DNA of 64,000 nucleotides, from NCBI GenBank assembly GCA_020851455.1, contig JADZCT010000034.1, positions 1,200 through 65,199 of the forward strand, read 5' to 3'. Both the position numbers and the translations under genes were made by a program. Positions 6,397 to 51,915 of this stretch are shown here, one piece after another. Numbering within the stretch: position 1 is the first letter of the stretch; every line of letters starts with the position of its first letter. The notes under the pieces were generated by a model. The model saw nothing but the letters and a program-made list of their open reading frames with translations, was not told where the DNA came from and ran no database searches. The DNA is from Gemmatimonadaceae bacterium. Its GTDB lineage: Bacteria; Gemmatimonadota; Gemmatimonadetes; Gemmatimonadales; Gemmatimonadaceae.

Positions 6397-6438
6397 CGTG
6401 GCGTGGAGTTGGGGTCGGTGGCCATTGGAGGAGGGCGG

Positions 6439-7298
<860 letters not shown>

Positions 7299-7302
<4 letters not shown>

Positions 7303-8932: not shown

Positions 8933-9900
8933 GAGCCGGTTCTCTGCGCCGGGTTCGCCATGAGCGCGCCGAAGTCGGCGAGCGCGCTTCCTGCCGAAAC
9001 GGCCACAGACCCGATGAGCACGAGGCCGATGACGAGCGGGTAATCGCGTCCGTTCACCGCGCCGAGCAGTGCGGATCCGGCGCCGGGCCAGTTGAACACG
9101 ACTTCCACGAGGGCCGCGCCGCCCACGAGGAGCGGAAGGAGCAGGCCGATCACCGTCAGGACGACGGGCGTGGTGCGCCGGAGAACGTGGCGGAACACGA
9201 TGTCCCGCGTGGAAGCGCCGCGCGCGCGCGCCGCCCGCACGAAGTCCTCGGCCATCGCTTCGGCGGCCGCCGCGCGCTGGTAGCGGGCCACCGCGGCGGC
9301 GATTGCGATCACAAGCGTTGCGCAGGGGAGTGCCGCGTGCCACGCGACGTCAGGGATGGAACCGAGCCAGGAGCCGGCCACGGCGCGCGCGTCGCGCATT
9401 CCGGTCGCGGGAAACCATCCCAGCCGCAGGGCGAACACCGTGCCGAGCATGAGCGCGAGCAGGAACTCGGGTAGAGAGACCAGCGCGAGCGTGAGCGCGC
9501 TCGTTGCACGATCGGAGAACCGCCCCACCCTCACCCCCTGCCATGTCCCGATCGCAACGCCGAGCAGCACGCCAATGAGAAGGGCCGGCCCCATGAGCAG
9601 CAGCGTTCGCGGGATCACGCTTGCCATCACGGACGATACCGGGCGCGCATGGGAATACGACACCCCGAAGTTGCCGCGTGCCAGGTTGCCGACCATTGCC
9701 GGGTACTGGATCCAGAGGGGACGGTCGAGTCCGTACGTCCGGCGCATCGCCTCGCGCGCCTCGGCGAGTTCGGGTGGGTCACCTGGGCCAATCGAAAACG
9801 GATCGCCTGGCGCGAGGTGGATCGCGAGGAACGCGACCGACGTGACGACGAACGCCACGAGGACGGCCTGGAAGGCCCGCGCGCCAAGGAAACGCAGCAC
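8929..9900 (-). CDS. peptide ABC transporter permease (OppB/DppB-like)
   Basis: Trimmed to the GTG at 9900, 2 nt after the SBP stop. Typical N-terminus VLRFLGARAFQAVLVAFVVTSVAFLAIHLAPGDP and the motif RAARARGASTRDIVFRHVLR. Confidence 0.88.
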   Translation of the reverse strand: MLRFLGARAFQAVLVAFVVTSVAFLAIHLAPGDPFSIGPGDPPELAEAREAMRRTYGLDRPLWIQYPAMVGNLARGNFGVSYSHARPVSSVMASVIPRTLLLMGPALLIGVLLGVAIGTWQGVRVGRFSDRATSALTLALVSLPEFLLALMLGTVFALRLGWFPATGMRDARAVAGSWLGSIPDVAWHAALPCATLVIAIAAAVARYQRAAAAEAMAEDFVRAARARGASTRDIVFRHVLRRTTPVVLTVIGLLLPLLVGGAALVEVVFNWPGAGSALLGAVNGRDYPLVIGLVLIGSVAVSAGSALADFGALMANPAQRTGS

Positions 9901-9902
9901 GC

Positions 9903-11546
9903 TTATCGCGGCGGCTCGGCGGCGCGCTTGCCCGCCGGGCCGATGACGTTCCAGTCCCGTATGGACTGCCACCACGCGTCCGGCGGCATCGTGCCGATCA
10001 CGAGCCGGCGGTTGGCGGCTGCGGGAAGGCGCGGCTCGTACAGCCAGATGGCGGGCGGGTCGTCAATCGCGGCCTGGAATGCCCGTTTCAGGTGGGCTCT
10101 GGCGCTCGCGATGTCGAACGCGGCGAGCCCGCTGTCCACCTGCAGGTCGAAGGCGGGACTTGCGTAGCCGCCCGCATTGAACGGCGAGCCAGGCTTGAAC
10201 GATGCCGCCGTCCAGCTCTGCCTCAGGCCGGTGGGGCTGGGGGTGGTGTTCCACGCGAACAGCGCGGCATCGAACTGGTGCGCCGCGAGCCGTGAGCGGA
10301 AGGCGAGCGGATCCACTGCGTCAATCTTCACTTCGACTCCAACCTCGCGCATCGCCTGCTGCAAGAGCTCCGCCATGCGAACCCGGGGCCGGCTCGACGT
10401 GCTCACCAGCACCGAAAGCGAGAGCCTCCTTCCGTTCCGGGCGCGGCCGCCGGCTGCGTTCCTTCGCCAGCCCAGCGAGTCCAGCGCCCCGCCGGCCGCG
10501 GCGGTGTCGTAGGGGAGGGGAGTGATGGCGGTGTCGGCTGCCCACTGGGCGCGCGTGAACGGGCCGAAGGCGACGAGCGCCAGCGTGTCGTACACTGTCC
10601 TGACGACCTGCGCGCGGTTGACGGCCATCGTGAGGGCGCGGCGCACGCCCCGGCTCCCGAGAATCGGATGGGGGCTTCGGCCGTCCGCGCCGCGAAGGTT
10701 GAACTCGAGGAACCCGTACTCGTAGCGGCGCGCCGGGACGAGCCGGACTTCCGGGTGCCGGACCGCCTCGGCGGCGTCGTCCACGGTGACGACCTCGATG
10801 AAGTCCGCGTCGCCTGCGAAGACCGCGCGTGCAGCCGCGGAGCCGTCGGCGAAGATCGAGAAGACGAGCCGGTCAATCCGCGGCCGGCCGAGGAAATAGG
10901 CGTCGTTCGCGGCAAGCTCGAAGCGCACCTTCTTGTCCCAGGACACGAACCGGAACGGCCCGTCCCCGACAGGATGCTGGGCGAAGGCCGACTGGCGAAG
11001 TGAATCGTGCGGAATGCCGCGCAGCAGGTGCTCCGGGAGCGGAACGACGTTGTACGCGATCGCGTGGAACATCTCCGGCCGGCGTGCGCGGTACCAAAAC
11101 GTCGCGGTGAGCGAGTCCGGCGTGGTGAGCGAGTCAATGAGCGCCGTGAAGTCAACGGCATTCGCCCCGGATGCCGGGTCGTTGTAGATCTCCCATGCAA
11201 TGCGGACATCCGCGGCGCGCACCGGGACGCCGTCGTGCCAGCGCGCGCGAGGGTCGAGGTGGAAGGTCACGGCCGTTGAATCGTGCGACCACTCCCAGCT
11301 CTGCGCGAGCCGAGGCAGGTAGCCGGCGTCGCCCACGGTGTTCTGCGCCGCGCCGATCTCGGCGAGCTTGTCGAAGATCAGGTCGGTGTAGAGCCGCGCC
11401 TGAGTCTCGGTCCACAGCCGCGGCACGAGCACGTCGCCGTCGCCGCCGGATGCGATGACGACCGTCCGGTCCGCGCCGGTCTCCGCGCGGCACGCGAGTG
11501 CCGCGATGCATGCAACCAGCCACAAGCGCCGGGCACCGGCCATCAT
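9903..11546 (-). CDS. ABC transporter substrate-binding protein, family 5 (OppA/DppA-like)
   Basis: Trimmed to the ATGATG at 11546, preceded by GGAGG. Signal peptide MMAGARRLWLVACIAALAC. The body matches SBP_bac_5 (LAQSWEWSHDSTAVTFHLDPRARWHDGVPVRAADV). Confidence 0.9.
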   Translation of the reverse strand: MMAGARRLWLVACIAALACRAETGADRTVVIASGGDGDVLVPRLWTETQARLYTDLIFDKLAEIGAAQNTVGDAGYLPRLAQSWEWSHDSTAVTFHLDPRARWHDGVPVRAADVRIAWEIYNDPASGANAVDFTALIDSLTTPDSLTATFWYRARRPEMFHAIAYNVVPLPEHLLRGIPHDSLRQSAFAQHPVGDGPFRFVSWDKKVRFELAANDAYFLGRPRIDRLVFSIFADGSAAARAVFAGDADFIEVVTVDDAAEAVRHPEVRLVPARRYEYGFLEFNLRGADGRSPHPILGSRGVRRALTMAVNRAQVVRTVYDTLALVAFGPFTRAQWAADTAITPLPYDTAAAGGALDSLGWRRNAAGGRARNGRRLSLSVLVSTSSRPRVRMAELLQQAMREVGVEVKIDAVDPLAFRSRLAAHQFDAALFAWNTTPSPTGLRQSWTAASFKPGSPFNAGGYASPAFDLQVDSGLAAFDIASARAHLKRAFQAAIDDPPAIWLYEPRLPAAANRRLVIGTMPPDAWWQSIRDWNVIGPAGKRAAEPPR

Positions 11547-11583
11547 GAATCCTCCGCTGGCTCTGCTGGCCAACGTTACCGGG

Positions 11584-12348
11584 CTACCTGCGCCACGTCC
11601 ACTGCGGATCCGCGAACTGGGCGCGCCATGGCGCGGCATACCGTGCGGCTTCTGCACGCTCGATGGGCTCGAGCGGCCCATGCGCGCGCTCCACGGCGGT
11701 TCGGAGCGCGGCGCGGACTTCGTCGCGCGTGACGCTCCGGCCCAGCGCGGCCTGGAGCGTGGCGCCGCGTGCGGGCGCTGGCATCCCTGCGCTCGCCAGT
11801 TCCGGGAGCGCGCCCTGCCGGTCCGCGAGGAGGATGGACCCGTGCTGGAGGAGCGCGCCCGCTTCGCGCCGCTGCGCGCTCGCGACAAGCTTGCGGCCGT
11901 CGAGCACCAGTTCGCCGGCGGACGGCGCCGCGAAGCAGGCATCGGCGCCGGGGCGCCGCTCGCGCGCAGCGGGCGCGGCTGGCGCAGGACGGACTCCGAG
12001 CGAGGCGATGGCATCCGCGAGCAGGGTGTTTATCCGGTCGAACGCGGCGCGGATGGACTCGCCGTCCGTCTCCGGCGCCGTCACGCTGTAGGTGACTTCG
12101 TCCTGGTGGAGCAGCACCCGCCCGCCCGTCGGCCGTCGCACCGCGCCGTAGCCGCGCGCATCGAGGAAGGCCGGATCGAACCTGCCGGCAACGCTCTCGT
12201 GCCGGCCGAACGAAAGCGTGGGACGGTCCCATCCATAAACCCGGAACACCGCCTCGCCGGTTTCCCGCGCGAGCACCATGAGCCCGGCGTCAACGGCCAT
12301 CTGCTCCGCGCCGGTTGCGTCCGGCGATTCGAGCCAGCGCCAACGCAC
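11584..12348 (-). CDS. lipoate-protein ligase / octanoyltransferase family protein (BPL_LplA_LipB domain only)
   Basis: Trimmed to the GTG at 12348. Motifs: AEQMAVDAGL, FRVYGWDRPTLSFGRHE, RRPTGGRVLLHQDEVTYS. About 254 aa with no LplA C-terminal domain. Confidence 0.72.
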   Translation of the reverse strand: MRWRWLESPDATGAEQMAVDAGLMVLARETGEAVFRVYGWDRPTLSFGRHESVAGRFDPAFLDARGYGAVRRPTGGRVLLHQDEVTYSVTAPETDGESIRAAFDRINTLLADAIASLGVRPAPAAPAARERRPGADACFAAPSAGELVLDGRKLVASAQRREAGALLQHGSILLADRQGALPELASAGMPAPARGATLQAALGRSVTRDEVRAALRTAVERAHGPLEPIERAEAARYAAPWRAQFADPQWTWRR

Positions 12349-12352
12349 GGGT

Positions 12353-12532
12353 TCAGCGGGCGATCGCGTAGTAGATGACGTAGATCCAGCCGAGGAACCC
12401 CTGGATGATCGCCCACAGGATCGAGTGGTGCTCGGTCCACGAGATGGCGATCGCAAGGGCGCTCCCGAAGCTGATCCCTGCCCGCGCCGCTCCGCCTGCG
12501 GAGATGACTGTCACGCGCCTGCCGTTGCCCAT
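12353..12532 (-). CDS. 59-aa membrane protein, below the ORF-track size cutoff
   Basis: Hand translation gives [59 protein letters not shown]. It has two hydrophobic segments. Its stop lies 4 nt before the GTG of the next gene on the same strand. Confidence 0.45.
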
Positions 12533-12588
12533 GCCGCAATCTAGCCACGCCGCGTATTTTTCGAGCGCACCCTACACCCGGCCTCAAC

Positions 12589-15450
12589 GTGACTTCAATA
12601 CCTGCCCCCGATACCTTCGTCTCGCGCCACCTCGGCCCGAGCGACGCAGACGTCCGCGACATGCTCGAAGTCTTGGGCTACCCATCGCTCGACGCGCTCA
12701 TGGACGCCACGGTTCCCGCCAACATCCGGCTTCGCCGCGCCCTCAGTCTGCCGGCTGCAATGTCGGAGCAGGAGGCACTCGCGGATTTCCGCGCGATGAT
12801 GTCGCAGAACGAAGTGTGGCGGACGTTCATCGGGATGGGCTACTACCCGACTCACACGCCCGCGGCCGTGCAGCGCAACATCCTCGAGAATCCCGGCTGG
12901 TACACGGCGTACACGCCCTACCAGGCGGAAATCGCGCAGGGGCGGCTCGAGGCTCTCCTCAACTTCCAGACCGTCGCGACGGATCTCACCGGGCTTCCGA
13001 TTGCGAGCGCGTCGCTGCTCGACGAGGCCACCGCGGCCGCCGAGGCGATGCAGCTCGTGCATGCCGTCGGGGGCGACCGCAATGTCTTCCTCGTGGCCGA
13101 CGACTGCCATCCGCAGACGATTGACGTGGTGAAGGCGCGGGGCGCCGCGCGGGGCATCCGTGTGCGGATCCAGTCCAGGTCGGCTTTCACCTTCAGCGCG
13201 AAGGTATGTGGGGTGATGTTGCAGTACCCGAACACATACGGCTCCATCGAGGACTACCGCGACGTCGTCGAGCGCGCCCACGCCGCCGGCGCGCTCGTGA
13301 CGGTCGCTACCGACCTTCTCGCGCTCACGCTGCTGGCGCCGCCGGGAGAGTGGGGCGCCGACGTGGTGTTCGGCAGCGCGCAGCGCTTTGGCGTGCCGAT
13401 GGGCTACGGCGGACCGCATGCGGCGTTCCTCACCGCGCGCGACGAATACAAGCGCCACATGCCGGGCCGCATCATTGGCGTGTCGAAGGACGCCGACGGC
13501 AGGATGGCGCTCCGGATGGCGCTCGGTACGCGCGAGCAGCACATCCGACGAGAGAAGGCTACGAGCAACATCTGCACCGCGCAGGTGCTCCTCGCCGTGA
13601 TGAGCGGCATGTACGCGGTCTGGCACGGCCCCGATGGCCTCGTGCGAATCGCCAGGCGCGTGCACGCTCTGGCCGAGGCGTTCGCCGAAGGCGCGCGCGG
13701 CCTGGGGCACACCGTGCTGCACGATGTGTTCTTCGACACGGTGCAGGTGAAGCTTGGCGCGCTGCGCCCGCTCGCCGCCGTGAAGCGCGAGGCAAAGAAG
13801 CACCGCGCCAACCTCAGGTACTTCCGCGACGGATCCGTCGGGGTGTCGTTCGGCGAGACGCACACGGTTGCCGACGTGGACGACCTCCTCGCCTGCCTTG
13901 GCTCGACCAGGTCAGGCGCCGCCGCGGCCGCCGCGGCGAAGACCGACGCGCGCTACGACGAGCGCTTCGCGCGCACCAGCGCGTTCTGCGCGCACCCGGT
14001 GTTCAACACGCACCACTCGGAAGCGGAGTTCCAGCGCTACGTGCGCCGGCTCGAGTCGAAGGACCTCTCGCTCGTTCACTCCATGATCGCGCTCGGCTCG
14101 TGCACGATGAAGCACAACGCCGCCGCGGAGATGTTCCCGGTAACGTGGCCCGAAGTGGGCGGCCTGCACCCCTTCGCACCCCGCACGCAGGCGAAGGGAT
14201 ACACGGCGCTCTTCGAGCGCCTCGAGAAGGCGCTGGCCGAGATCACGGGATTCCACGCCGTATCGCTCCAGCCGAACGCCGGGTCGCAGGGCGAGTACTC
14301 CGGCCTGCTGGTGATTCGCGCCTACCACCACTCCCGCGGCGACAAGAAGCGCGACGTTTGCCTGATCCCGCAGTCGGCGCACGGAACCAACCCGGCGAGC
14401 GCGGTGATGGCAGGCATGCGGGTCGTGGTGGTGAAGACCGACGAGCACGGCAACATTGACGTGGCCGACCTCAAGGCGAAGGCGACCGAGCACAAGGAGG
14501 ATCTCGCGGCGCTGATGGTCACGTACCCGTCCACGCACGGCGTGTTCGAGGAGGCGATCACCGAGATCACGTCGGTGATCCACGCGAACGGCGGCCAGGT
14601 GTACCTCGACGGCGCCAACATGAACGCGATGGTCGGGCTCTGCCGCCCTGGCGACATCGGTGCCGACGTATGCCACCTCAACCTGCACAAGACGTTCGCG
14701 ATCCCGCACGGCGGTGGTGGTCCGGGCGTGGGGCCGATCGGTGTCGCGGAACACCTTGCGCCGTTCCTGCCAGGGCACGCGGTGGTTCCGACAGGCGGCT
14801 CGAAGCACATCGGCGCAGTGAGCGCCGCGCCGTGGGGAAGCGCCAGCGTCCTCCCCATCTCGATGATGTACATAATGATGCTGGGCGGCGACGGACTCAC
14901 GCTGGCAACCAAGTACGCGATCCTGAACGCGAACTACGTGGCCAGGCGGCTCGAGGGGCAGTACCCAGTGCTCTACAGCGGCGCCAACGGTACCGTCGCG
15001 CACGAGTGCATCGTTGACCCACGTGAGCTGAAGCAGTCGGCGGGGATCGAGGTCGAGGACATTGCGAAGCGGCTCATGGACTACGGCTTCCACGCGCCTA
15101 CGGTCTCGTTCCCGGTGGCGGGCACCCTGATGATCGAGCCGACGGAGAGCGAGCCGAAGGAAGAGCTGGACAGGTTCATCGAGGCGCTGGTGGCCATCCG
15201 GAAGGAGGCCGAGGATGTGGCGGCTGGCGTGCTGCCGCGCGACGACAACCCGCTCAAGCGAGCGCCGCACACGATGGAAGCGGTAGTGACGGACGGATGG
15301 GCGCGCGCTTATACGCGCGAGCGCGCGGCGTTCCCGCTGCCGTGGGTGCGGGGGCGCAAGTGCTGGCCTGCGGTCGCGCGCGTTGACAACGCGTACGGCG
15401 ACAGGAACCTCGTCTGCGCCTGCCCGCCGATCGAGATGTACAGCGCCTAG
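12589..15450 (+). CDS. gcvP: glycine dehydrogenase (decarboxylating), single-chain P protein
   Basis: 953 aa with GTG start. Collinear with fused GcvP and carries the PLP-lysine region [18 protein letters not shown]. Confidence 0.97.
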
Positions 15451-25984: not shown

Positions 25985-26971
25985 CTACTTGGCCGGCTTC
26001 GGCAGGTCGAGGCACCAGTCGGACGGAGCGCGGAGCGCTTCATGCCACTGGCCGCCCTTGAACGCGAGCACGACGAGCTGGTTCCGGCCGCCGAACTTCC
26101 ACGCCTCGAGCATGATCTCGTCCACGCCGTCGCCGTTTACGTCCAGCCGGTCCACGAGGCGCTGGAACTCGACGCCTTTCGCGTCGCCGCTCTTCACGTG
26201 GCGGTAAGTGGCTACGTATCCGGTGTCGGCCTTGTCGAAGAGCGCGAGGATGTGGGACGTGTGCCCGATTCCGGGCGCCACGTCTCCCGCCTGCTGGTCA
26301 ATGAACGACACGAGCAGCGTCGGGTTCTTCGTCGCGCCGGTGTTGAGCATTCTCGCAACGAAGTCGAGCGAGTCGAGCTCCTGTTTATCCATCCCGTTCT
26401 GTGCGCCGAGCGCCTGGCCGAGGGAACGGCCGAGCTGGGCTATCGCGGCGTCGGGCGGCAGAACCGGGGGCTTGCCCGGATGAGCCGTCATCGCGGTTGA
26501 CGACGCGATGAGCTCAACGGAGGGATCGGACGGCGACGTCTCGAAGTCGAGCCGGGCAGCCCCGACCGGCCGCAGTTCGCGGCATCCGGGCAACGGATAA
26601 AGCGGCGCATCGCCGCCGGTCCACATCCCGCGTGTCACCGTCACGGTGCCGCGCGGCGCATCGTCGGAGTACACCTCGTACCTGGATCCTGGCGCGAGAT
26701 AAGCGCTGTCGAGCTCGCGCCAGCCCGCGCGGGTGAGCGCGATCGGCTTGATTGCCCCGTTGGTCACCGCGGCGATCGGCATGATCTTTGGTTCTTTCGC
26801 GTCGCCGAACACCTGAAAAAGGACCGTCGGGTGGCTCGCGAGGTCGAGCGCGGGGACGCCGTCCGGCAGAACCTGGTTGGGGTCGGCCTTGGATGCCTTG
26901 TCGCAGGCGGCTACGGCGAGTAGCATGGCCACGACGAGTCCACCGGAACGCACTGGCAGCGAGGGTCTCAT
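25985..26971 (-). CDS. lipoprotein, function unknown
   Basis: Trimmed to the ATG at 26971. Lipobox LLAVAAC. The C-terminus has an FG-GAP/calcium-loop-like DVNGDGVDEI. Confidence 0.65.
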   Translation of the reverse strand: MRPSLPVRSGGLVVAMLLAVAACDKASKADPNQVLPDGVPALDLASHPTVLFQVFGDAKEPKIMPIAAVTNGAIKPIALTRAGWRELDSAYLAPGSRYEVYSDDAPRGTVTVTRGMWTGGDAPLYPLPGCRELRPVGAARLDFETSPSDPSVELIASSTAMTAHPGKPPVLPPDAAIAQLGRSLGQALGAQNGMDKQELDSLDFVARMLNTGATKNPTLLVSFIDQQAGDVAPGIGHTSHILALFDKADTGYVATYRHVKSGDAKGVEFQRLVDRLDVNGDGVDEIMLEAWKFGGRNQLVVLAFKGGQWHEALRAPSDWCLDLPKPAK

Positions 26972-27008
26972 GGGCGAATCGTACGGCGGGCTGCCGCCGG
27001 GGGCAAGC

Positions 27009-27956
27009 ATGGAGGCAGTTGCGCGGTTCCTTGCCGGCCTCCGGGGCAGCAGCGCCTGGCCAGCTTCCCCCGCGTCTGCCGAGTCGTTCGGCCTCCCGGA
27101 ACGGCGTCCTGCGGCCGTCGTGGACGCCGACCCTTTGGAGGAGGTGGCCGAGGGCGGGCTGGCGGTTCCAGGCGTCCCTGAGCCCGGCTTCGCGGCGTTC
27201 CTTGACGGCATCCAGCGTTCAGTCGTGCTTCCGGGCGGCCCGCATGGCGTGCCGCTGGTCTACGGCACCGTTGCGGCAGCCATCCGCCGCCGGCGGGATG
27301 ACCGCGTGCTGGAGACGTGGGGCGGCGGCGCGATCGTGCGCCATTCGCTCTACGCCCCGGTTGCGCGCGCCGACCGCGGCGTGCTCGGCCAGGCCGGCGC
27401 CGCCGGGCTCGACGTCGTTGACACGGCGGCGGAAGGCGCGCATCCGCATGAGGTTCTCTCGGCGGCGCTTGACGCCATCCACCGGGCACGCGGGGCGGTC
27501 GAAGCCGAACTCGCCACGCGCTGGTGCGCGCGGGAGACGGCGCTGCTCTACGTGGACGGCGGGATTGCCGGGCTTGGCGAGCCGGCGTCGAGCGACCGCG
27601 CCGTTGGGGTGGTCAAGTCGCATCGCACCGTATACGGCGGGCAGGCGGCCATGAACGCCGCGTTCGCGATGGCAGCCGGCCAGCGAACGCACGCATTCAC
27701 GGTCGAAGGCCGCGGCCGCGCCAGCGTCGCCAGCTGGTATCTCCGGTTGCACGCGGGCGACGGCACCGACCCGTTCGGCGGAATCGTGAGGGTCGAGGTT
27801 GCCAGCGGCGCGTTTACGTCTGAGCGTGCCGACTCCGTCTCGCGCTGGATCCTCGCCGAGCGGTCGCCGGTCGCTCTTCCCGACCCACGCTGGCGCGTGA
27901 TGCCGTACGGGATAAGGGCGGTGGAAGAGTACCTGCGCGCAGCCGTTCCGCGATAG
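27009..27956 (+). CDS. nurA: NurA-family nuclease
   Basis: Trimmed to the ATG at 27009, because earlier starts would overlap the divergent lipoprotein gene. NurA-like motif series: AAFLDGIQRS (catalytic Asp), LLYVDGGIAGL, AVGVVKSHRT, and C-terminal PYGIRAVEEYLR. It lies 4 nt upstream of herA. Confidence 0.62.
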   Translation: MEAVARFLAGLRGSSAWPASPASAESFGLPERRPAAVVDADPLEEVAEGGLAVPGVPEPGFAAFLDGIQRSVVLPGGPHGVPLVYGTVAAAIRRRRDDRVLETWGGGAIVRHSLYAPVARADRGVLGQAGAAGLDVVDTAAEGAHPHEVLSAALDAIHRARGAVEAELATRWCARETALLYVDGGIAGLGEPASSDRAVGVVKSHRTVYGGQAAMNAAFAMAAGQRTHAFTVEGRGRASVASWYLRLHAGDGTDPFGGIVRVEVASGAFTSERADSVSRWILAERSPVALPDPRWRVMPYGIRAVEEYLRAAVPR

Positions 27957-27960
27957 CGGC

Positions 27961-29931
27961 GTGGCGGTACCTTACAGGATGGCTGCGATCCTTGGCCACG
28001 TCGTCGCGACCGAGCGTCGCCCCAACACCCCGCACGAGTTCCACTTCTGGACGGCGCTCGACGCGCCGGTCGGGATTGGCACGATCGTGCGCGTGGAGGG
28101 CACCGACGCCGTCGCCGGCCACGTTCCGCAGGTGTACGGCGTCGTGGTCGAGGGATTCAGCTACTCCGATCTTGAAACGCCGCTCCACGACGTGCTCGGC
28201 GCCGACGGATCGCCCGAGCGCGCAATGCGCGTCCCCACGCGCCGCACGGAGATTCGCCTCTACACCGCCGCGGTCCTCCGCCACGTTCCTGACGAACCGC
28301 TCCAGCCGGTGGCGCTTGGCGGCGTGTACCTCGCCGATGATGCGGACGTTGCCGTGGCCCTGCGGATGGACCGGTACACGCAGGGCGAGGCGCCGACCGG
28401 TATTCCGATCGGGCTCTACCGCGCAGGCGCCACGGCATCGCCGATCTACCTCGACGCCGACTTCCTGCTGGGGCCGGAAGCTGCACACCTGAACATCACG
28501 GGCGTCTCAGGGCTTGCTACCAAGACGAGCGCGGTCGAGTGGCTCCTGGCCTCGGTTTTCGCGCACTTCCCTTCCGCGAAGGGGAGCGTTGCCGCGCTCT
28601 GCTTCAACGTGAAGGGCCCGGACCTTTGCTTCCTCGACCAGCCTGCGGAACGGCTCGATGGGTCCGACCTGGATCTGTACGCGCGCCTTGGCGTGCCGGC
28701 CAGGCCGTTCGCGGGCGTGGAATACTTCGCGCCGTACACTGCGCGCGGACACACGCTGAATACCCTCCGCTCGCACGATGCGCTCTCTCACAACGTGCAT
28801 CCGCTCCGGTGGGGGCTGGGCGAAGTGCTCCAGCACGTCGAGGTGCTGCTCAACAAGGACGACGTTGATGCCAAGGCGGATGCGTTGATCGAGTTTATCC
28901 GCGAGCGCATCGTGGGTCAGGAGTTCCGCGACCCGCTCCTCGGCGCTGACGCGCATCGCGTCCAGACCTTCAGCGACCTGGACCAGTGGTTCCGCGGCGT
29001 GCTTCGCGCCATGGAGGAGCGCAACCAGGATTCCTGGCGCACGCATCACGTGGCCACGATCCGCAAGGTGCGAAACCGCCTGTCGAACATCTCCACCCGA
29101 TGCCGCGGGCTCGTGGCCGACGACGGGCTGGCGAGCGACCTCCCGTGGGGGCAGTTCCGCGACCGCGGCGTGTACGTGGTGGACGTGGCCAACCTGGAGG
29201 AAGACGCACAGGATCTGATATTCGCACGCATCATCACGAAGCTTCGCGAACTCATGGAGAAGCGCGCCCTCGGCGTTGATCACCTCGTCGTGTTTGTGGA
29301 CGAGCTGAACAAGTACGCGCCGTCCGATGGTGCCGACACGTACGTCCGCAAGATGCTCCTCGACATCGCAGAGCGTGGGCGCTATCTCGGGCTCGTGCTG
29401 TTCGCGGCGCAGCAGTTCCGCTCGCAGGTTCACCGGCGCGTGGTAGGCAACAGCGGGACTGCGTTATACGGCCGGATGGACGTGGACGAGCTGGCGACGC
29501 CCGGGTACTCGACGCTTGCGCCTGCCACGCGCGCGCGGCTCTCCACGCTCGACAAGGGCGAGCTGATGGTGCGCCATCCGCACTTCGCCCACCCCGTCTT
29601 CGTGCGCTTCCCGCGGCCCGCGGTGCTGTCCGGGCGCGAGGGGGTCGAGCGGTTCCCGGCCGCGGGCGAGCCGACCCTCGAGGAGGCGATCGTCCGCTCC
29701 CTCAGGCAGCTCGACAAGGCGGTGACGCTCGAGTGGGTGAAGGATGCAATCGCGCTCGCCGAGGAGGACGAGGTGCTGCGCGCCCGCAACCGCACGCTGC
29801 AGGTCCGGCCGGATGACGTGAAGGCGTTCTTCCGCGCGCAGCTTCGCCGCCGCGTGCACGCCGAGCCGGCCGCGCCTCGCCCGCGTCCGGTGATCCGCTC
29901 CAGCCCGGGCGACGACCCGTACGCCTTCTAG
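27961..29931 (+). CDS. herA: HerA-family (FtsK/HerA superfamily) hexameric ATPase/translocase
   Basis: 656 aa with GTG at 27961 (alternative ATG at 27979). HAS-barrel-like N-terminus (ILGHVVATERRPNTPHEFHFW...IGTIVRVEG...VYGVVVE). P-loop-like HLNITGVSGLATKTS. Walker B HLVVFVDELNKYAP. Also ERGRYLGLVLFAAQQFRSQV. Confidence 0.8.
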   Translation: MAVPYRMAAILGHVVATERRPNTPHEFHFWTALDAPVGIGTIVRVEGTDAVAGHVPQVYGVVVEGFSYSDLETPLHDVLGADGSPERAMRVPTRRTEIRLYTAAVLRHVPDEPLQPVALGGVYLADDADVAVALRMDRYTQGEAPTGIPIGLYRAGATASPIYLDADFLLGPEAAHLNITGVSGLATKTSAVEWLLASVFAHFPSAKGSVAALCFNVKGPDLCFLDQPAERLDGSDLDLYARLGVPARPFAGVEYFAPYTARGHTLNTLRSHDALSHNVHPLRWGLGEVLQHVEVLLNKDDVDAKADALIEFIRERIVGQEFRDPLLGADAHRVQTFSDLDQWFRGVLRAMEERNQDSWRTHHVATIRKVRNRLSNISTRCRGLVADDGLASDLPWGQFRDRGVYVVDVANLEEDAQDLIFARIITKLRELMEKRALGVDHLVVFVDELNKYAPSDGADTYVRKMLLDIAERGRYLGLVLFAAQQFRSQVHRRVVGNSGTALYGRMDVDELATPGYSTLAPATRARLSTLDKGELMVRHPHFAHPVFVRFPRPAVLSGREGVERFPAAGEPTLEEAIVRSLRQLDKAVTLEWVKDAIALAEEDEVLRARNRTLQVRPDDVKAFFRAQLRRRVHAEPAAPRPRPVIRSSPGDDPYAF

Positions 29932-29944
29932 GACGCGGCCGCCC

Positions 29945-31165
29945 ATGCGACTGGTCCACTTCTCCGACGTTCACCTGGGCTTCCGCCAGTTCCAGCGCGT
30001 CACCCCCGCGGGGATCAACCAGCGCGAGGCAGATGTCGCCCGCTCCTTCGCGAACGCAATCGAGAAGACGATCGAGCTCCGGCCGGATCTCGTGCTGGTC
30101 GCCGGCGACGTGTTCCACACGGTTCGCCCCACCAACCCCGCGATCCTGCACGCCTTTTCGCAGTTTGCGCGCCTCGTGCGCGAACTGCCCGGCGCAACGG
30201 TCGTGGTGGTAGCGGGAAATCACGACATACCGCGGTCCAGCGAGTCAACGTGCATCCTCCGGCTGTTCCGGCAGCTGGGCGTTCACGTGGTGGACGGATC
30301 CGCGGCAACCGCCGACGCGGTTCCGGCGCAGCGGCTGGCTTTTCCGGAGCACGACTTGTCCGTCCTTGCAGTGCCGGAAGTGGCGAGCCAGAACCTCGAC
30401 TGGTCGCCGGACCCCGCGGTCAGACACAACGTCCTGCTTGCGCACGGGGAGGTGCAGGGACTCTACCCGTCAGGCCACGCGCCGGACGACCCGGGGTCGC
30501 TCGAGATCCCGAAGTCCGTCTGCGAGTCCTCGGCGTGGGACTACATAGCGCTCGGGCACCACCACACGTACCGGCGCATGGGCCCGAACGCGTACTACAG
30601 CGGTTCGCTCGACTACGCGAGCACGAACGTGTGGGGGGAACTGGCCGAGCAGAAGGCGCAGAAGCTGCCGGGAAAGGGCCTGATCGAGCGCGACCTGGTG
30701 ACGGGCAGGCAATCGTTTCACCCGCTGCCGGTCGTTCGCGAGTTCGTGGACCTGCCCCCCCTCGACGGGCGCGGGCTTGCAGCCGCCGACCTCGACGCGG
30801 CGATCGGCATGGCCGTCAGGCGCGTGAGCGGCGGCATCGAGGGCAAGGTCGTGCGCCTCGTTGCGCGCGACGTCGCGCGCCACGTCGTCCGCGAGCTGGA
30901 CCACAAGGCGCTGCGCGAGGTGCAGCGCGCGGCGCTGCACTTCCATCTCGACACGCGGCGCCCGGACGTGATCAGGCACGAAGGGAGCGGCGCGCCTGGC
31001 CGACGTCCGTCACTCGTTGATACGCTGCGGGAGCGCCTGCGCAGCCGCGAGCTCGCTCCAGGGGTGGACCGAGAGCGCCTCATTGCACTCGGCCTGCAGT
31101 ACCTGGCGATGGCCGAGCACGAGGGCGCGCCATCTGAAGCGGCCGTCCCGCCCGGGGACGCATGA
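29945..31165 (+). CDS. Mre11/SbcD-family nuclease (calcineurin-like phosphoesterase)
   Basis: 406 aa with phosphoesterase motifs in order: HFSDVHLG, VAGDVFH, VAGNHD, LLAHGEV, ALGHHH. The stop overlaps the rad50 start (ATGA). Confidence 0.9.
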   Translation: MRLVHFSDVHLGFRQFQRVTPAGINQREADVARSFANAIEKTIELRPDLVLVAGDVFHTVRPTNPAILHAFSQFARLVRELPGATVVVVAGNHDIPRSSESTCILRLFRQLGVHVVDGSAATADAVPAQRLAFPEHDLSVLAVPEVASQNLDWSPDPAVRHNVLLAHGEVQGLYPSGHAPDDPGSLEIPKSVCESSAWDYIALGHHHTYRRMGPNAYYSGSLDYASTNVWGELAEQKAQKLPGKGLIERDLVTGRQSFHPLPVVREFVDLPPLDGRGLAAADLDAAIGMAVRRVSGGIEGKVVRLVARDVARHVVRELDHKALREVQRAALHFHLDTRRPDVIRHEGSGAPGRRPSLVDTLRERLRSRELAPGVDRERLIALGLQYLAMAEHEGAPSEAAVPPGDA

Positions 31166-33630
31166 AGCTCGAGCGCCTTCGCCTGCTGAACTTCCGGCAG
31201 CACGAGGATTCTACCCTCGTGTTCGAGGATGGGCTCACGGGAATCATCGGCCCGAACGGCGCGGGCAAGTCCACGCTGCTCGAGGCGGTCGCCTGGGCGC
31301 TGTACGGCGGCGACACGGCGCGCGGGGGGAAGGAGTCAATCCGGTTCGCGCGCGCGGCAGCGCGTTCTCAGGTGCGTGTGGAGCTCGACTTCGACCTCTC
31401 CGGCCACCGGTACCGGGTGGTGCGCGGGCTCTCGATGGCGGAGCTGTACGTGGACGACGGCGAGCAACCCATCGCGAACTCGGCGACGGGCGTCAGCGAC
31501 GTCCTCCAGCGCCGCCTCGGCATGACGCGCGACGAGTTCTTCAACACGTACTTCGCCGGGCAGAAGGAACTGGCCGTCCTTGCGGCGCGCTCCGCGGTCG
31601 AGCGTGCGCAGTTTCTGTCGCGCGTGCTCGGATATGAGCGGCTCCGGGTGGCGCAGGAACTGGCCGATCAGCGCCGGCGCGACCTCCGGTACGAGATCCA
31701 GGGGATGCGCAGCGGCATGCCCGACGCTGCCGCGATCGAAGCCGAGGAGGCCGAGGCCGCCCGTGCGGTCGAGGCCTCGCGTGCGCGTGTGGTTGATGCG
31801 GAAATCGAGCGGTCGCGCGTGCAGGCGCAGGTGGACGCAGTCGCGCCCCGGTGGGAGGAGGCCCAGCGGCAGCGAGACGAGCGCCAGCAGATGGAGGCAG
31901 ACATCAGGGTCACGCAGACGGAGCTCGCCGCGCAGCGCAGGAACGTCGAACGCCTCGCCGCGGAACTCCGCCATGTGGACGAGGCGCGGAGCGCGCTTGC
32001 GCCGCTCGCGGCGGAGCTTGGCCAGTTCGACGACCTTGGGCGCGAACTTGCCCAGTTGCGGGACCTGGCCGCGCATGACGGACGGCGTCGCGCCCTGTCG
32101 GAGCAGGAGGCGATCATCGCTTCGGAACTGGTCGCGCTTCGCGCACAGCGCGAGGTGCTGTTCGAGGCCGCAGCCGGCGAAGAGCGGGTGATCGAGCACC
32201 TCGAGTCGCAGCGGCGCCGCCTCGATGACGTCCAGGGGCGGCTGGAGCTGCGCCGCACGGACTGGGTGCGCGATCGCCAGGAAGCAGAGACGCGGCGCAA
32301 CGCCCTCCGGACGCAGTACGCCGAGCTCCGCGACCAGCGCGGTCGGCTCGTGGCGCGGGGCGAGCAGGGCGTGTGTCCCACCTGCCAGCGGCCGCTGCTT
32401 GAGCATTACAGGCAGGTCCTCGACCTGCTCGACAATCAGATGGAAAGCGTGAACGCCGACGGGTCGTACTATCGCGCCCGGCTCGAGCAGCTCGATGCGA
32501 TGCCCGGCGACCTGGTCGAGCTCGACAACGAGCGCCGTCGCGTGCAGCAGGACGTGAGCGCGATCGAGCGTCGGCTTGCGCGGACACAGGCGAGCGTGCA
32601 GCAGCTCGAGCACGTCGAGCGCGACATCGCCGCCAGGGAGCAGCGGCACGCGGCGCTGGTGCGCGACCTTGTAGCTGTACCGGGTGGCTACGACGCCGCG
32701 CGCCACAGGGCCGTGGAAGCGGAGTTCGGCCGGCTCGTCGAGCTCAGCGCGCAGGCGAACCGGCTCACCACGCAGGTCGAACGCGAGTCCGGGCTGCGGC
32801 GTGAGATAGAGAACGTCGGCCGGAGCGTCGAGACCCTTGCCGCCCGCGACGCCGGCCTCGTGACCCGGCTGGCTGCACTCGTCATGTCGGAGGCGGAGTA
32901 CGTGACGCTTCGCGACCGGCACGCGTCGGCTGCCGTGGAACTGCAGGCGGCGATGGTGGCGACCGCTGCCGCAACGGAGGCGATGGCGGCTGCGCAGGCG
33001 GCCGCCGACCGCGCGGCAACGGCGCGCGCGAACCTTGCGCTGGCATCGCAGCGCGTCGAGGCGCTGGAGCGCGAGAGGCAGCTGCACGAGGAGCTGCACC
33101 GCGCGTACTCCGACCTCCGCACCGACCTCAACCACGCGATGCGGCCCGAGCTCTCGGACCTCGCAAGCGCCTTCCTCGCCGAACTGACCGACGCCCGCTA
33201 TACCGGCCTCGAGCTCGACGACAAGTACCGGATCGTCGTGCTAGAGGACGGCGTGCCGAAGCCAGTGATCTCAGGCGGCGAAGAAGACCTCGCCAACCTC
33301 GTCATGCGACTCGCAATCTCGCAGATGATCGCCGAGAGGGCCGGTCAGGCGTTCTCCCTCCTCGTGCTCGACGAGGTCTTCGGTTCTCTCGACGACATCC
33401 GCCGGCAGAACGTCGTATCGCTCCTCCGCGGCCTCCAGGACCGGTTCGAGCAGGTCATCCTGATCACGCATATCGAGGACGTCCGCGACGGGCTCGACCA
33501 TGTCTTCGAGGTGCGGCGCGACGAGCATACCGGGGCCTCGGTCATCGCGCGCGGCTCGGCGAGGGGCAGGGAATTCGCCGACGCGATTGCCGCGGGCGAA
33601 CCCGCCGAACCTGGGGGGAGAACGGAGTGA
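31162..33630 (+). CDS. Rad50/SbcC-family SMC-like ATPase
   Basis: 822 aa. Walker A GPNGAGKSTLLEA, long coiled-coil arms, a CPTC zinc hook at 32374-32385 (residues 405-408, mid-protein), signature SGGEEDLANL, and Walker B LLVLDEVFGSLD. Confidence 0.9.
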   Translation: MKLERLRLLNFRQHEDSTLVFEDGLTGIIGPNGAGKSTLLEAVAWALYGGDTARGGKESIRFARAAARSQVRVELDFDLSGHRYRVVRGLSMAELYVDDGEQPIANSATGVSDVLQRRLGMTRDEFFNTYFAGQKELAVLAARSAVERAQFLSRVLGYERLRVAQELADQRRRDLRYEIQGMRSGMPDAAAIEAEEAEAARAVEASRARVVDAEIERSRVQAQVDAVAPRWEEAQRQRDERQQMEADIRVTQTELAAQRRNVERLAAELRHVDEARSALAPLAAELGQFDDLGRELAQLRDLAAHDGRRRALSEQEAIIASELVALRAQREVLFEAAAGEERVIEHLESQRRRLDDVQGRLELRRTDWVRDRQEAETRRNALRTQYAELRDQRGRLVARGEQGVCPTCQRPLLEHYRQVLDLLDNQMESVNADGSYYRARLEQLDAMPGDLVELDNERRRVQQDVSAIERRLARTQASVQQLEHVERDIAAREQRHAALVRDLVAVPGGYDAARHRAVEAEFGRLVELSAQANRLTTQVERESGLRREIENVGRSVETLAARDAGLVTRLAALVMSEAEYVTLRDRHASAAVELQAAMVATAAATEAMAAAQAAADRAATARANLALASQRVEALERERQLHEELHRAYSDLRTDLNHAMRPELSDLASAFLAELTDARYTGLELDDKYRIVVLEDGVPKPVISGGEEDLANLVMRLAISQMIAERAGQAFSLLVLDEVFGSLDDIRRQNVVSLLRGLQDRFEQVILITHIEDVRDGLDHVFEVRRDEHTGASVIARGSARGREFADAIAAGEPAEPGGRTE

Positions 33631-34595
33631 TGGGCATGCGCAGAGAGCACTCGCCACTCTTCGGGCCGCATCCAGTGACGATGGACGACGTCCCGTCGCT
33701 CAACGATCTGTTCAGCAGCGCGTTCACCGCCAGGTATCGCCGCGACGGCCTCGTGGGCGTGCGCGTGCCGCCGCTCAACCCCGCGATCTGGGAATACGCG
33801 ATTTCCGCGGCCGGGCGCGGCGCCATGCTGTGGCGTGATTCCCACGGCGCCATTGCGGCCTTCAACTTCGCGCATACTTCGGGCCGCGAAGGATGGATGG
33901 GTCCGCTCGCCGTGCGGGAGGACTGCCAGGGCACGGGGGTGGGCAAACTGGTCGTCCGCTCCGCGATTTCACACCTCATGGGGTCGGGCTGCGCCACGAT
34001 CGGACTCGAGACCATGCCCCGTACGGTGGACAACATCGGCTTCTATTCGACCCTCGGCTTCGTGCCGGGCACGATCACCGTCACGCTCACCATGGAGGCC
34101 ACCGAGTCGGGCGAGGTGCGTGGGCTGCTGTCTCAGCTCAACCCGGCGGCGCGCGATGCAGCAGTTGCGGAATGCTCGGCGCTCACTGCGCGGGTCCTTC
34201 CGGGGTCGGAATACGCGCGCGAGGTGCGGCTTACCCACGAGCTTCGGCTGGGCGATACGATATTGCTGCGGCGCGACGACGCCCTCGTGGCCTTCGCACT
34301 CTGCCATGCGTCGCCGCTGGTCGAGGGGCGCGGCCGCGAGGAGCTTCGCGTGCTCAAGCTGGTCGCCGCAGACCAGGCGGCGTTCGAGGCGCTTCTGGCG
34401 CCGCTGGCTTCGCTGGCGCGCAGGACGTCAAACGCGCGCTTCGCCATGCGCGTTCAGGGCGAGTACCGCGCGGCATATGCCTCCGTGATCCGGGCGGGCG
34501 GTCGCGTGCGCTGGACGGACCTTCGGATGACCCTCGAGGGATACCCGCAGGTCCCGCCCGTGGGCGGAATCGCCTTCACGAACTGGGAGATCTGA
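33627..34595 (+). CDS. GNAT-family N-acetyltransferase with extra C-terminal domain
   Basis: 322 aa. The start (GTG 33627, ATG 33630 or ATG 33636) overlaps or abuts the rad50 stop. Acetyl-CoA motif LAVREDCQGTGVGKLVVRSAISHL. About 170 aa of additional C-terminal sequence. Confidence 0.75.
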   Translation: MMGMRREHSPLFGPHPVTMDDVPSLNDLFSSAFTARYRRDGLVGVRVPPLNPAIWEYAISAAGRGAMLWRDSHGAIAAFNFAHTSGREGWMGPLAVREDCQGTGVGKLVVRSAISHLMGSGCATIGLETMPRTVDNIGFYSTLGFVPGTITVTLTMEATESGEVRGLLSQLNPAARDAAVAECSALTARVLPGSEYAREVRLTHELRLGDTILLRRDDALVAFALCHASPLVEGRGREELRVLKLVAADQAAFEALLAPLASLARRTSNARFAMRVQGEYRAAYASVIRAGGRVRWTDLRMTLEGYPQVPPVGGIAFTNWEI

Positions 34596-34605
34596 CTCCA
34601 GGCCG

Positions 34606-34800
34606 CTACCGCTTTCGCTTCGCCTCGCGTGGACAGGCTGCGCGCTGAGCGCGCGTGACGATTCGCCAGATGAGCAGAAAGACGCCGCCCGTGAGGAGCA
34701 GGTGGATCCAGCCGGGGCCATCGGCCCACGTGCCCGCGGCCCACACTGCCAGCATCGTAACGGCAACGACGATGATCGGGTCCAGCGGGCGCTCCTCCAT
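34606..34800 (-). CDS. small membrane protein (lmo0937-like pattern)
   Basis: 64 aa with two TM segments. GWIHLLLTGGVFLLIWRIV resembles the small GxIHLLLVIAVV-type family. No clear SD. Confidence 0.45.
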   Translation of the reverse strand: MEERPLDPIIVVAVTMLAVWAAGTWADGPGWIHLLLTGGVFLLIWRIVTRAQRAACPREAKRKR

Positions 34801-42013: not shown

Positions 42014-44909
<2,896 letters not shown>

Positions 44910-48351: not shown

Positions 48352-50382
<2,031 letters not shown>

Positions 50383-50446: not shown

Positions 50447-50755
50447 TTATCGGCGCATCCCCCACCTGATCTTCCGCACAGGGTCGGCGCCCTCACGCGC
50501 GTTGATCCGCGCCAGCAGATGCACTTCCATCATGGACAGCTCCGTCATCCACTGCGGCGATGAAACGTCCACGAACAGGGTGCCATCGCGCGTGATTCGC
50601 TGTGGGGTCGTCACCGTCGCGATCTGCGGGCCAACGATCTCCGCCCACTCGGCGAGCACGGATGTCCGGCGCAGCGACGCATCGAGTCCGCTCTTCTTGA
50701 GGAAGCTCGCCATCGCCTCTCCGATCGAGGCTGCCGTTTCCTTACGGTCGGCCAC
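50447..50755 (-). CDS. DUF721 (DciA-like) protein
   Basis: 102 aa. The segment WAEIVGPQIATVTTPQRITRDGTLFVDVSSPQWMTELSMM matches the DUF721 pattern. It sits in the classic position between recF and gyrB. Confidence 0.8.
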   Translation of the reverse strand: MADRKETAASIGEAMASFLKKSGLDASLRRTSVLAEWAEIVGPQIATVTTPQRITRDGTLFVDVSSPQWMTELSMMEVHLLARINAREGADPVRKIRWGMRR

Positions 50756-51914
50756 GGCCGTTCTCCGGAAAGAATGCGCCGCCGCTCACGCGCCAGCGTT
50801 CGAGGCGCGTAAAGGCCGCGGGAATTTCGTCCGCACGCGGAACGCAGAGGATCACCTGCGCCGCGCCGCCAACCGCGTTGTCGGCGATGAGTCCGAGAAC
50901 GCGCGCCACGCGGTTGTGGTCCAGCTCGGCGAACGGGTCGTCGAGCAGGAGGACGGGCTGCACCAGCTTGCGTTCGCGGAACGTCTCCGCCTCGAGCAGG
51001 CGCAGCGCAATGGCGGCGGTGCGATGCTGTCCCGCGGAGCCGCTTAGCCGGAGCGCGCGCCGGTCCAGCGTGATCGTGAGGTCGTCGCGGTGGGGGCCGT
51101 GCTGCGTCATGCCCCGGAGCTCGTCCTGCTCGCGCGCGGCTTCCAGTGCGGCTTCGATGTCGCCCTCGGTGCCGGCATGGGCGCCAAACTCCGACGCGTA
51201 CGCCAGTGCCATTGGCTCCACCTCGCCGATCGTGGCCGCGAGCGACGCAAACCGTGTGGCGTAAGCGCCGGTCCACTCGTGCCGCGCGCGGACTATCACG
51301 GCGCCATGCTCGGCGATGGCCGGGTTCCACGCGCGTGCGGTTGCGCGCGCCGCGAGGCTGCCCCGAAGGGCCGCGTTCCGTCGCGCCAGTGCGGCGCGGT
51401 AATGCCTGAGCGCGTGCAGATAGGCGGCGTCGGTGAGCCCGAGCATGACGTCCAGCAGCCGGCGGCGTTCGCCCGGCCCGCCCGCCACCAGTGCCGCGTC
51501 CGCCGGCGACACGCACACGGAGGGCACTGCACCAACCGCGTCGCCCAGCCGCACTGTCTCGACGCCGTCGAGCGTTACACGCTTGTCGCCCGCCCGCGAC
51601 ACGCCCACCGACACGCGCCTCGCTCCCGTTCCCTCTGCGCTCGCGCCCAGGTGAAACGCCTCCGCGCCAAAGCGGATGAGGTCGCGGTCGCGTGCGCTCC
51701 GCATCGAGCGGAGGAGCTCGAGGTATGCGATTGCTTCAAGCAGGTTCGTCTTGCCCTGTCCGTTGTCGCCCACTACGGCCACCCCTTCGCGCGGGATGCG
51801 GAGGGTGGCGCTCTCGATGTTGCGGAAGTTGCGGAGATCCAGGGTCCCGATCCGCGCCGGGGTTACGACCCTGCCTTCGCCATCAGCCGGAGAAGCAACG
51901 GGCGCAGCCGCCAT
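50742..51914 (-). CDS. recF: DNA replication and repair protein RecF
   Basis: 390 aa. Walker A GDNGQGKTNLLEAI, signature SAGQHRTAAIAL, Walker B LLLDDPFAELD. Confidence 0.93.
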   Translation of the reverse strand: MAAAPVASPADGEGRVVTPARIGTLDLRNFRNIESATLRIPREGVAVVGDNGQGKTNLLEAIAYLELLRSMRSARDRDLIRFGAEAFHLGASAEGTGARRVSVGVSRAGDKRVTLDGVETVRLGDAVGAVPSVCVSPADAALVAGGPGERRRLLDVMLGLTDAAYLHALRHYRAALARRNAALRGSLAARATARAWNPAIAEHGAVIVRARHEWTGAYATRFASLAATIGEVEPMALAYASEFGAHAGTEGDIEAALEAAREQDELRGMTQHGPHRDDLTITLDRRALRLSGSAGQHRTAAIALRLLEAETFRERKLVQPVLLLDDPFAELDHNRVARVLGLIADNAVGGAAQVILCVPRADEIPAAFTRLERWRVSGGAFFPENGRGRP

Positions 51915-51915
51915 C

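Follow-up and report, generated by a model that had tools for sequence, protein, structure and literature searches.

Do NurA–HerA and Mre11–Rad50 act together in bacteria? The question is raised by a locus in a 64,000-nucleotide stretch of DNA from a soil bacterium of the Gemmatimonadaceae (contig JADZCT010000034.1, positions 1,200 to 65,199; hereafter the window, numbered from its first letter), where five tightly packed plus-strand genes spanning 26970-34595 (from the list of open reading frames (ORFs) and from junctions read in the sequence) encode NurA-, HerA-, Mre11- and Rad50-type proteins and an acetyltransferase of the GNAT family. The reading we favor, with a probability of about 0.6, is that the locus is a double-strand-break end-processing or resection module joining two machines. 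It draws on the identities of the four DNA-processing proteins, on their intact motifs (putatively catalytic in NurA) and on the conservation of the neighborhood throughout the phylum. The linkage itself has been described in archaea and in a small number of bacteria; what is new is a phylum-wide NurA–HerA plus Mre11–Rad50 variant with a conserved GNAT gene and with a NurA/HerA clade that curated models miss. The features in question are as follows.

26970-27956, plus strand: nurA, divergent bacterial-type NurA nuclease, 328 aa (predicted from family profile, AF2/Foldseek and motifs)
27961-29931, plus strand: herA, bacterial-type HerA ring ATPase/translocase (predicted from phmmer against PDB and Walker motifs)
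29945-31165, plus strand: mre11/sbcD, Mre11-type phosphoesterase nuclease, 406 aa (Pfam, NCBIfam, PDB, motifs)
31162-33630, plus strand: rad50/sbcC, compact Rad50 ATPase, 822 aa (Pfam, NCBIfam, PDB, motifs)
32374-32385, plus strand: codons of the CPTC zinc hook, Rad50 residues 405-408 (translation)
33627-34595, plus strand: fifth gene, two-domain GNAT acetyltransferase of ~321 aa, starting at GTG 33627 or ATG 33630 (Pfam)

Identity of the encoded proteins and gene arrangement

The protein of known structure that the second gene product resembles is HerA of Deinococcus radiodurans (drHerA), seen in the NurA–HerA complex (PDB 7f6d, 7wrw and 7wrx; PMC9960219). A phmmer search against PDB returned 7f6d_B at E 4e-45 over two stretches (query residues 12-285 and 334-564) that take in the N-terminal (HAS-barrel) and RecA-like ATPase regions, and archaeal HerA structures gave no match at E <= 1. 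The unusual Walker A motif, GVSGLATKTS, aligns with GISGVATKTS in drHerA (shared pattern GxSGxATKTS), the Asp of FNVKGPD aligns with the catalytic D220, and Walker B lies in VVFVDELNKY. The residues K182/T183, D215 and D441/E442 (650-aa numbering), which align with drHerA K175/T176, D220 and D487/E488, are invariant in 33 diverse family members. By sequence comparison, gene 2 thus encodes a HerA of the bacterial, Deinococcus type and not of the archaeal type, in keeping with the HerA-type ATPase first proposed for it; hexamer formation and translocation on double-stranded DNA are predicted. The protein is 100% identical to an entry from a metagenome-assembled genome (P0121, ‘ATP-binding protein’ of a Gemmatimonadaceae bacterium). 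Its C-terminal tail (window 29670-29931, residues ~570-656) is found throughout the Gemmatimonadota clade and in the nearest outgroups (650-674 aa in all), and makes the protein ~30 residues longer than drHerA (650 versus 618 aa) and 60-100 residues longer than most other family members. Since lineages without Mre11–Rad50 also have the tail, it is not specific to the four-gene linkage.

The first gene product is more divergent. Its 359-aa translation matched no Pfam or NCBIfam family at E <= 0.01, none of 120 listed homologues has a precomputed Pfam domain, and a single-sequence phmmer search against PDB gave nothing even at E <= 10. A profile built from 43 homologues matched D. radiodurans NurA (drNurA, 7f6d_H) with E 9e-5, over only 71 profile positions around the KSHR motif. 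An AF2 model made from the homologue alignment had a predicted local distance difference test score (pLDDT) of 89 and a predicted template modeling score (pTM) of 0.89, and its top Foldseek match was again drNurA (7f6d_G, E 9e-12, TM 0.58), which shares the bacterial-type fold yet is only ~19% identical. This was followed by Thermotoga maritima TM1739 (1zup, E 3e-10), Sulfolobus solfataricus NurA (2ygk, E 2e-6) and TdpB of the TdpAB system (8wfd_G, E 1e-4). The motifs FLDGIQ, YVDGG and VGVVKSHR are present, and the candidate metal-binding residues D66, E165, D183, H205 and E263 (numbered from 27009) are invariant in the 43 homologues, the invariant D, E and H residues falling in the FLDGIQ, YVDGG and KSHR motifs. 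The product is therefore predicted to adopt the RNase H-like NurA fold and, judged by profile and model, represents a divergent clade of bacterial (Deinococcus-type) NurA, with dimer formation and Mn-dependent 5'-3' nuclease activity predicted. Profile and fold search thus agree with the NurA assignment made at the outset.

Curated models fail for this pair. The preliminary description had expected Pfam NurA and HerA models to match genes 1 and 2; neither product has a Pfam match, and NCBIfam gives a weak hit to HerA only (NF040937, HerA_Thermprot; 21.4 bits against a cut-off of 800, E 7e-5). Judged by such models, both assignments would be lost; they are nevertheless upheld by the drHerA match and the NurA fold, so that the pair is identified by its resemblance to the solved D. 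radiodurans complex together with a predicted fold. Close homologues of both proteins, all from Gemmatimonadota, are labeled as hypothetical or ATP-binding proteins.

Genes 3 and 4 are recognized directly, the Metallophos and SbcC/AAA_23 models suggested for them both giving matches. Mre11 matches Pfam Metallophos (E 1.8e-12) and falls just under the cut-off of TIGR00619 (sbcd; 73.8 against 77.65 bits); archaeal Mre11 models in NCBIfam match at E 1e-15 to 1e-16, far below their equivalog cut-offs, and the best PDB matches are Mre11 of Methanocaldococcus jannaschii and Pyrococcus furiosus, then of T. maritima. All five phosphoesterase motifs are present (DVHLG, GDVFH, GNHD, AHGE and GHHH). Rad50 matches Pfam AAA_23, SMC_N (residues 3-788) and SbcC_Walker_B, and scores 200.8 bits with NCBIfam PRK03918 (cut-off 700) versus 90.6 bits with sbcc TIGR00618 (cut-off 478.5), neither cut-off being reached. 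Its PDB matches are Rad50 of P. furiosus, M. jannaschii and T. maritima, these archaeal and Thermotoga proteins scoring 73-105 bits, and Escherichia coli SbcC is not among the matches at E <= 1e-3. The ABC head is complete, with Walker A (GPNGAGKST), Q-loop, signature (SGGEED), Walker B (LLVLDEVF) and H-loop, and the CPTC zinc hook lies mid-protein, at residues 405-408 of 822. Mre11 and a compact Rad50 with a central hook are thus confirmed by domains and full motif sets, and every motif string quoted for the four proteins in the preliminary description was located in the translations. E. coli-type SbcCD belongs to the same superfamily and has the same sbcD-sbcC order with overlapping genes; its SbcC is longer (~1050 aa versus 822 aa).

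The archaeal style first ascribed to the block holds in part. By pairwise similarity, as distinct from phylogeny, archaeal and Thermotoga proteins give Mre11 and Rad50 higher scores than E. coli SbcCD or the sbcC and sbcD models do; NurA and HerA are of bacterial type and show no sign of recent archaeal transfer. Such a transfer of the whole block is accordingly rejected for NurA and HerA, and stands as a candidate for Mre11 and Rad50. The archaeal herA-mre11-rad50-nurA clusters of Sulfolobus and Pyrococcus, which are linked and co-transcribed (PMC2288612, PMC4351679), comprise the same four families and likewise have a compact Rad50 with a CxxC hook. They differ from the window in their NurA and HerA (the Pfam NurA and HerA models miss the proteins of the window, which stay far off the NCBIfam archaeal equivalog cut-offs) and in the extra GNAT gene.

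The junctions were confirmed by direct reading as first described, with five genes on one strand. The nurA stop codon (TAG 27954-27956) is followed after 4 nt by GTG 27961 of herA, the herA stop at 29931 after 13 nt by the mre11 ATG at 29945, the mre11 stop and rad50 start overlap as ATGA (31162-31165), and the GTGATG at 33627-33632 that starts the GNAT gene overlaps the rad50 stop codon TGA (33628-33630). If herA instead starts at ATG 27979, as in the identical protein P0121, it has 650 rather than 656 codons and the gap to nurA is 22 nt. One start had to be corrected: nurA most likely begins at ATG 26970 (328 aa) and not at 27009, because a 95%-identical orthologue (P0001) is 328 aa long and residues conserved in the family (Y, GxS) lie in frame upstream of 27009. 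With gaps of 4 to 22 nt or overlapping stop and start codons, the five genes are probably co-transcribed and partly translationally coupled in the lineage of the window.

Conservation in Gemmatimonadota and linkage elsewhere

A HerA-alignment scan with one genome per GTDB species gave at least 595 loci, of which the best 80 were kept; all 80 are from Gemmatimonadota, with HerA 62-84% identical. Gene positions in these genomes were tabulated by tblastn, the denominators here being the contigs that reach far enough. nurA lies upstream of herA on the same strand in 71 of 73 genomes and is directly adjacent in 67 of them; mre11 lies downstream of herA in 67/67, even across gaps of up to 6 kb, and rad50 follows mre11 in 60/60. 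Tight packing on one strand is ordinary by itself, but the recurrence of this gene order in 80 other species exceeds chance. Rather than being scattered among close relatives, the four genes stay linked across nearly all these species representatives, and the same block recurs repeatedly in Joint Genome Institute (JGI) metagenome contigs. A literature search found no paper linking HerA or NurA to Gemmatimonadota in substance.

The spacing between herA and mre11 varies more than the order. Measured between the ends of tblastn matches, at least 499 nt separate the two genes in 46 of 67 genomes, with gaps of 0.76-1.1 kb in ~40 and of 2.5-6.4 kb in six; in the other 21 they lie within 300 nt and are directly adjacent. 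In the one wide-gap locus with gene calls (L001), the gap holds a CarboxypepD_reg gene on the minus strand (13003-14070) that overlaps the herA stop codon, an insert missing in the lineage of the window. The uninterrupted five-gene operon would then be a compact version of the locus: the one-operon description fits the lineage of the window, and most Gemmatimonadota are interrupted between herA and mre11.

The locus is a chromosomal, phylum-wide and vertically inherited core trait of Gemmatimonadota, as its housekeeping flanks, uniform composition and conserved neighborhood indicate. The five genes have a GC content of 0.68-0.73 (GC3 0.83-0.87) in a window of 0.689, with no compositional shift. 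Upstream lie genes for thymidine kinase (tdk), an aminotransferase, an AsnC-type protein and a 313-aa hypothetical protein; downstream lie those for a small membrane protein, PTPS, GTP cyclohydrolase I (folE) and an acyl-CoA synthetase. These flanking housekeeping genes are themselves syntenic in relatives, the AsnC-type gene and folE keeping their positions, and the surroundings in the window hold no mobile-element genes. That the locus is core and not mobile, as supposed at the outset, is thereby supported, and a mobile or defense island is rejected on synteny, flanks and composition.

The 313-aa gene (25985-26969, minus strand; no Pfam match) runs divergently from nurA, starts ~40 nt from the nurA start and keeps this upstream position in part of the phylum. 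The ~40-nt gap shows no sigma-70-like promoter; nurA may therefore have a leaderless transcript, or a promoter within the neighboring gene may serve it. Elsewhere in the 64 kb there are further DNA-metabolism genes, for NAD-dependent LigA (42014-44122), GyrB (48352-50382) and RecF (50742-52019), all on the minus strand, and for UvrA (61068-63998, plus strand), which runs off the window end. The cumulative GC skew reaches its maximum near 34-36 kb, where the five-gene block ends.

Outside the phylum, the distribution is that of a dozen sampled loci rather than a census, a metagenome scan with a distant HerA seed having returned mostly Gemmatimonadota. A NurA-type gene adjoins herA also in L087, L088, L090 and L094-L108. 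A tight nurA-herA-mre11-rad50 cluster is present in the immediate sister lineage (L108), whose HerA is 52% identical; the Mre11 and Rad50 of L108 are 40% and 31% identical to those of the window and this Rad50 carries CPTC at residue 460 of 923, from which the two proteins are taken as orthologous. Further clusters of NurA-like, HerA, SbcD and SMC (SbcC) genes on one strand occur in three plasmid-database records. In a plasmid of Ca. Chlorohelix allophototropha (Chloroflexota; L091, 5095-13152) the order is that of the window; in a linear plasmid of Streptomyces sp. BB1-1-1 (L092, 4775-14081) and in Nonomuraea gerenzanensis (L093, ~6377-13123, in an 11.85-Mb record that is filed as a plasmid, is chromosome-sized and is unannotated at the locus) it is herA-sbcD-sbcC-nurA. 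A rough neighbor-joining tree places the HerA proteins of these three records in a clade separate from that of the window, and their SbcD and SbcC have only motif-level similarity to Mre11 and Rad50 of the window, with a longer SbcC of 1036-1117 aa. The four-gene linkage is thus consistent with separate assembly in other phyla, a deep common origin being the alternative.

Deinococcota provide further points of comparison. In the window, mre11, rad50 and the GNAT gene lie downstream of herA, unlike in D. radiodurans, where nurA and herA form a pair. Its sbcCD genes presumably sit elsewhere in the genome. Their connection with Deinococcus HerA–NurA is given only as unknown (PMC4663267). The Thermus pair, ‘nurA-hepA’, has nurA before herA as in the window (PMC5448004), the Deinococcus pair being described only as one operon. 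In Oceanithermus profundus, sbcD-sbcC lies downstream of nurA-hepA, which its authors read as an archaeal-like architecture of double-strand-break repair (PMC5448004). That report, compared here by description only, is a passing remark on one genus of another phylum and mentions no GNAT gene. The linkage first called unusual for bacteria is therefore real, and it has bacterial precedents in Oceanithermus, the Chloroflexota plasmid and the two actinomycete records.

The fifth gene, a GNAT acetyltransferase

The coupled fifth gene of the preliminary description, whose start does overlap the rad50 stop codon, can now be given an identity. Its N-terminal domain matches Pfam Acetyltransf_1 at residues 74-145 (39.1 bits, gathering cut-off 20.7), as do 31/31 orthologues, and carries the acetyl-CoA motif QGTGVG at residues 101-106 (Q/RxxGxG/A pattern). 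The C-terminal ~170 residues, conserved as strongly as the N-domain, give faint Acetyltransf_17 matches in 4/31 members (best E 0.0017); aligning its N-terminal to its C-terminal half with hhalign, for the whole protein, detected no internal duplication (probability 2%). A single-sequence structure model was unusable (pLDDT 35). A 91-nt tRNA-Ala(cgc) called by ARAGORN inside this ORF (34312-34402, plus strand) was dismissed as a spurious call in GC-rich DNA, given that Rfam finds no tRNA anywhere in the window and that conservation of the protein extends through the stretch. A hydrophobic ORF of ~63 aa (34612-34800, minus strand) lies just beyond the GNAT gene in convergent orientation; its equivalent in L001 is a 52-aa gene with a weak DUF5670 match.

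That the acetyltransferase belongs to the system is suggested by its position and conservation only; it may modify or regulate a component or substrate of the end-processing machinery. The gene follows rad50 directly in 53 of the 55 Gemmatimonadota species genomes whose contigs extend far enough, shares one base with rad50 in L001, and both of its domains are better conserved than NurA (mean column identity 64% versus 56%). Against these points stands the possibility, real although short of an even chance, that it is an unrelated housekeeping acetyltransferase, RimI-like for example, which shares a transcript by chance and is no part of the system: a profile of 31 orthologues is closest, in the N-domain, to the protein N-acetyltransferases RimI and Naa30 (E 2e-7), and the gene is absent from L077 (Longimicrobiales), from L084, from the sister lineage L108, from the metagenome loci L154, L155 and L176, and from the four-gene clusters of other phyla (L091-L093). 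The gene apparently joined an already existing four-gene cluster within Gemmatimonadota.

A bolder proposal, which we regard as unlikely, is that the two-domain GNAT protein is an integral regulatory subunit that acetylates Rad50, Mre11, HerA, NurA or an end-binding protein and so switches resection on or off, with NurA–HerA and Mre11–Rad50 together forming the main double-strand-break resection pathway of Gemmatimonadota. If this were true, bacterial NurA–HerA would gain the clear physiological role that it lacks in Deinococcus and Thermus.

End processing and its alternatives

In the mechanism that we favor for the locus, Mre11–Rad50, a pair of the SbcCD class made up of a zinc-hook ABC ATPase and a Mn-dependent nuclease, would recognize and clip DNA ends, hairpins and blocked ends. 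The HerA hexamer would then thread duplex DNA from the end into the NurA dimer, which would split the strands and digest the 5' one as translocation proceeds, so that a 3' tail is left for RecA. The second half of this scheme follows drNurA–HerA, the closest characterized homologue, for which ATP-driven, translocation-coupled 5' resection has been described biochemically (PMC9960219).

Several observations weigh against cooperation of the two machines in one module. With 0.76-1.1 kb between herA and mre11 in most genomes and an opposite-strand gene in the L001 gap, the five genes do not as a rule form a single transcription unit in the phylum, the wide gap being found in about two thirds, and a promoter and terminator scan of the unit in the window was uninformative, detecting no defining signal. 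The next outgroups after the sister lineage, L106 and L107, have nurA-herA without Mre11–Rad50. In D. radiodurans and Thermus thermophilus, nurA and herA mutants are not more sensitive to damage, deletion even having improved tolerance, and the authors of the complex structure are themselves uncertain of its role in bacteria (PMC9960219). Finally, part of the conserved adjacency may be plain inherited synteny: because the surrounding housekeeping genes are syntenic too, adjacency within the phylum is weaker evidence than recurrence of the linkage in other phyla.

Taken to its end, the last point makes synteny the whole explanation, with NurA–HerA and SbcCD–GNAT, the latter for cleanup of hairpins and ends, as independent modules that do not cooperate. 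The wide and interrupted herA-mre11 gaps and the equally fixed AsnC-type gene and folE suit this account, as do the relatives in which nurA-herA occurs alone (the nearest outgroups, viral contigs and DruA-linked loci). It has difficulty with the unbroken placement of mre11-rad50 downstream of herA despite gaps of several kilobases, with the tight packing of four genes in the sister lineage, and with genes in the window close enough for translational coupling. Above all, linkage of these four families recurs in other bacteria, where SbcCD is non-orthologous and very divergent and the order differs, as well as in Oceanithermus and archaea, which argues that the linkage is selected. We therefore consider synteny alone a doubtful explanation, and prefer that of a joint end-processing module.

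A further alternative is that the block serves, solely or in addition, as a barrier to foreign DNA that degrades the linear ends of invading phage, plasmid or transforming DNA. The contexts of more distant HerA relatives make such a role plausible for plasmid- and island-borne members of the family. The plasmid-database clusters L091 and L092 have an ImmA/IrrE metallopeptidase gene as immediate neighbor, with TIR-domain or TIGR02678/TIGR02680/DUF2397 genes nearby; other relatives are solitary or belong to an island that carries AbiGi and an integrase, some form triads of a DruA-domain gene with nurA-herA, and 12 IMG/VR contigs carry nurA-herA without Mre11–Rad50. The resemblance of the NurA model to TdpB points the same way. 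A search with PADLOC-DB 2.0 gave weak matches of HerA to mad8 (E 1e-9) and of Rad50 to LmuB and mad3 (~2e-31), and all matches, PDC-S10 included, were generic to ATPase or phosphoesterase proteins, with none for NurA or the GNAT protein and no system-level match. Moreover, the same housekeeping neighborhood in 80 species, the lack of mobile genes and the even composition are the opposite of a patchy defense island. A defense role is thus improbable for the locus of the window, more so than synteny alone; the choice between repair and defense, left open at first with a core function favored, is drawn by synteny and by the PADLOC result toward the core function.

Two arrangements among the distant relatives deserve mention in their own right. 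In a large, distant HerA clade outside Gemmatimonadota, a gene with a DruA domain (PF14236) lies directly upstream of nurA-herA, without Mre11–Rad50 (L087, 5968-9644; L088, 6077-9734; L109-L111); this conserved triad may be a distinct system, possibly related to defense. In L090 (5755-9671), a PAPS_reduct gene is followed by a 429-aa NurA-like gene and then by herA; the island around them also carries AbiGi, a gene with an HD domain, a fragment resembling a terminase and a phage integrase.

For the biology of the phylum, the finding means that an environmentally abundant group of bacteria keeps NurA–HerA beside Mre11–Rad50. The system has been invisible to routine annotation because Pfam and NCBIfam miss its NurA/HerA clade, and its genes are accordingly labeled ‘hypothetical protein’ or ‘ATP-binding protein’. 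Cultured Gemmatimonas species would be tractable test organisms, and the conserved GNAT gene suggests a possible control point based on acetylation. Together with linkage to non-orthologous SbcCD elsewhere, the phylum-wide adjacency provides comparative evidence that the two machines may work jointly in bacteria, as is supposed for their archaeal counterparts.

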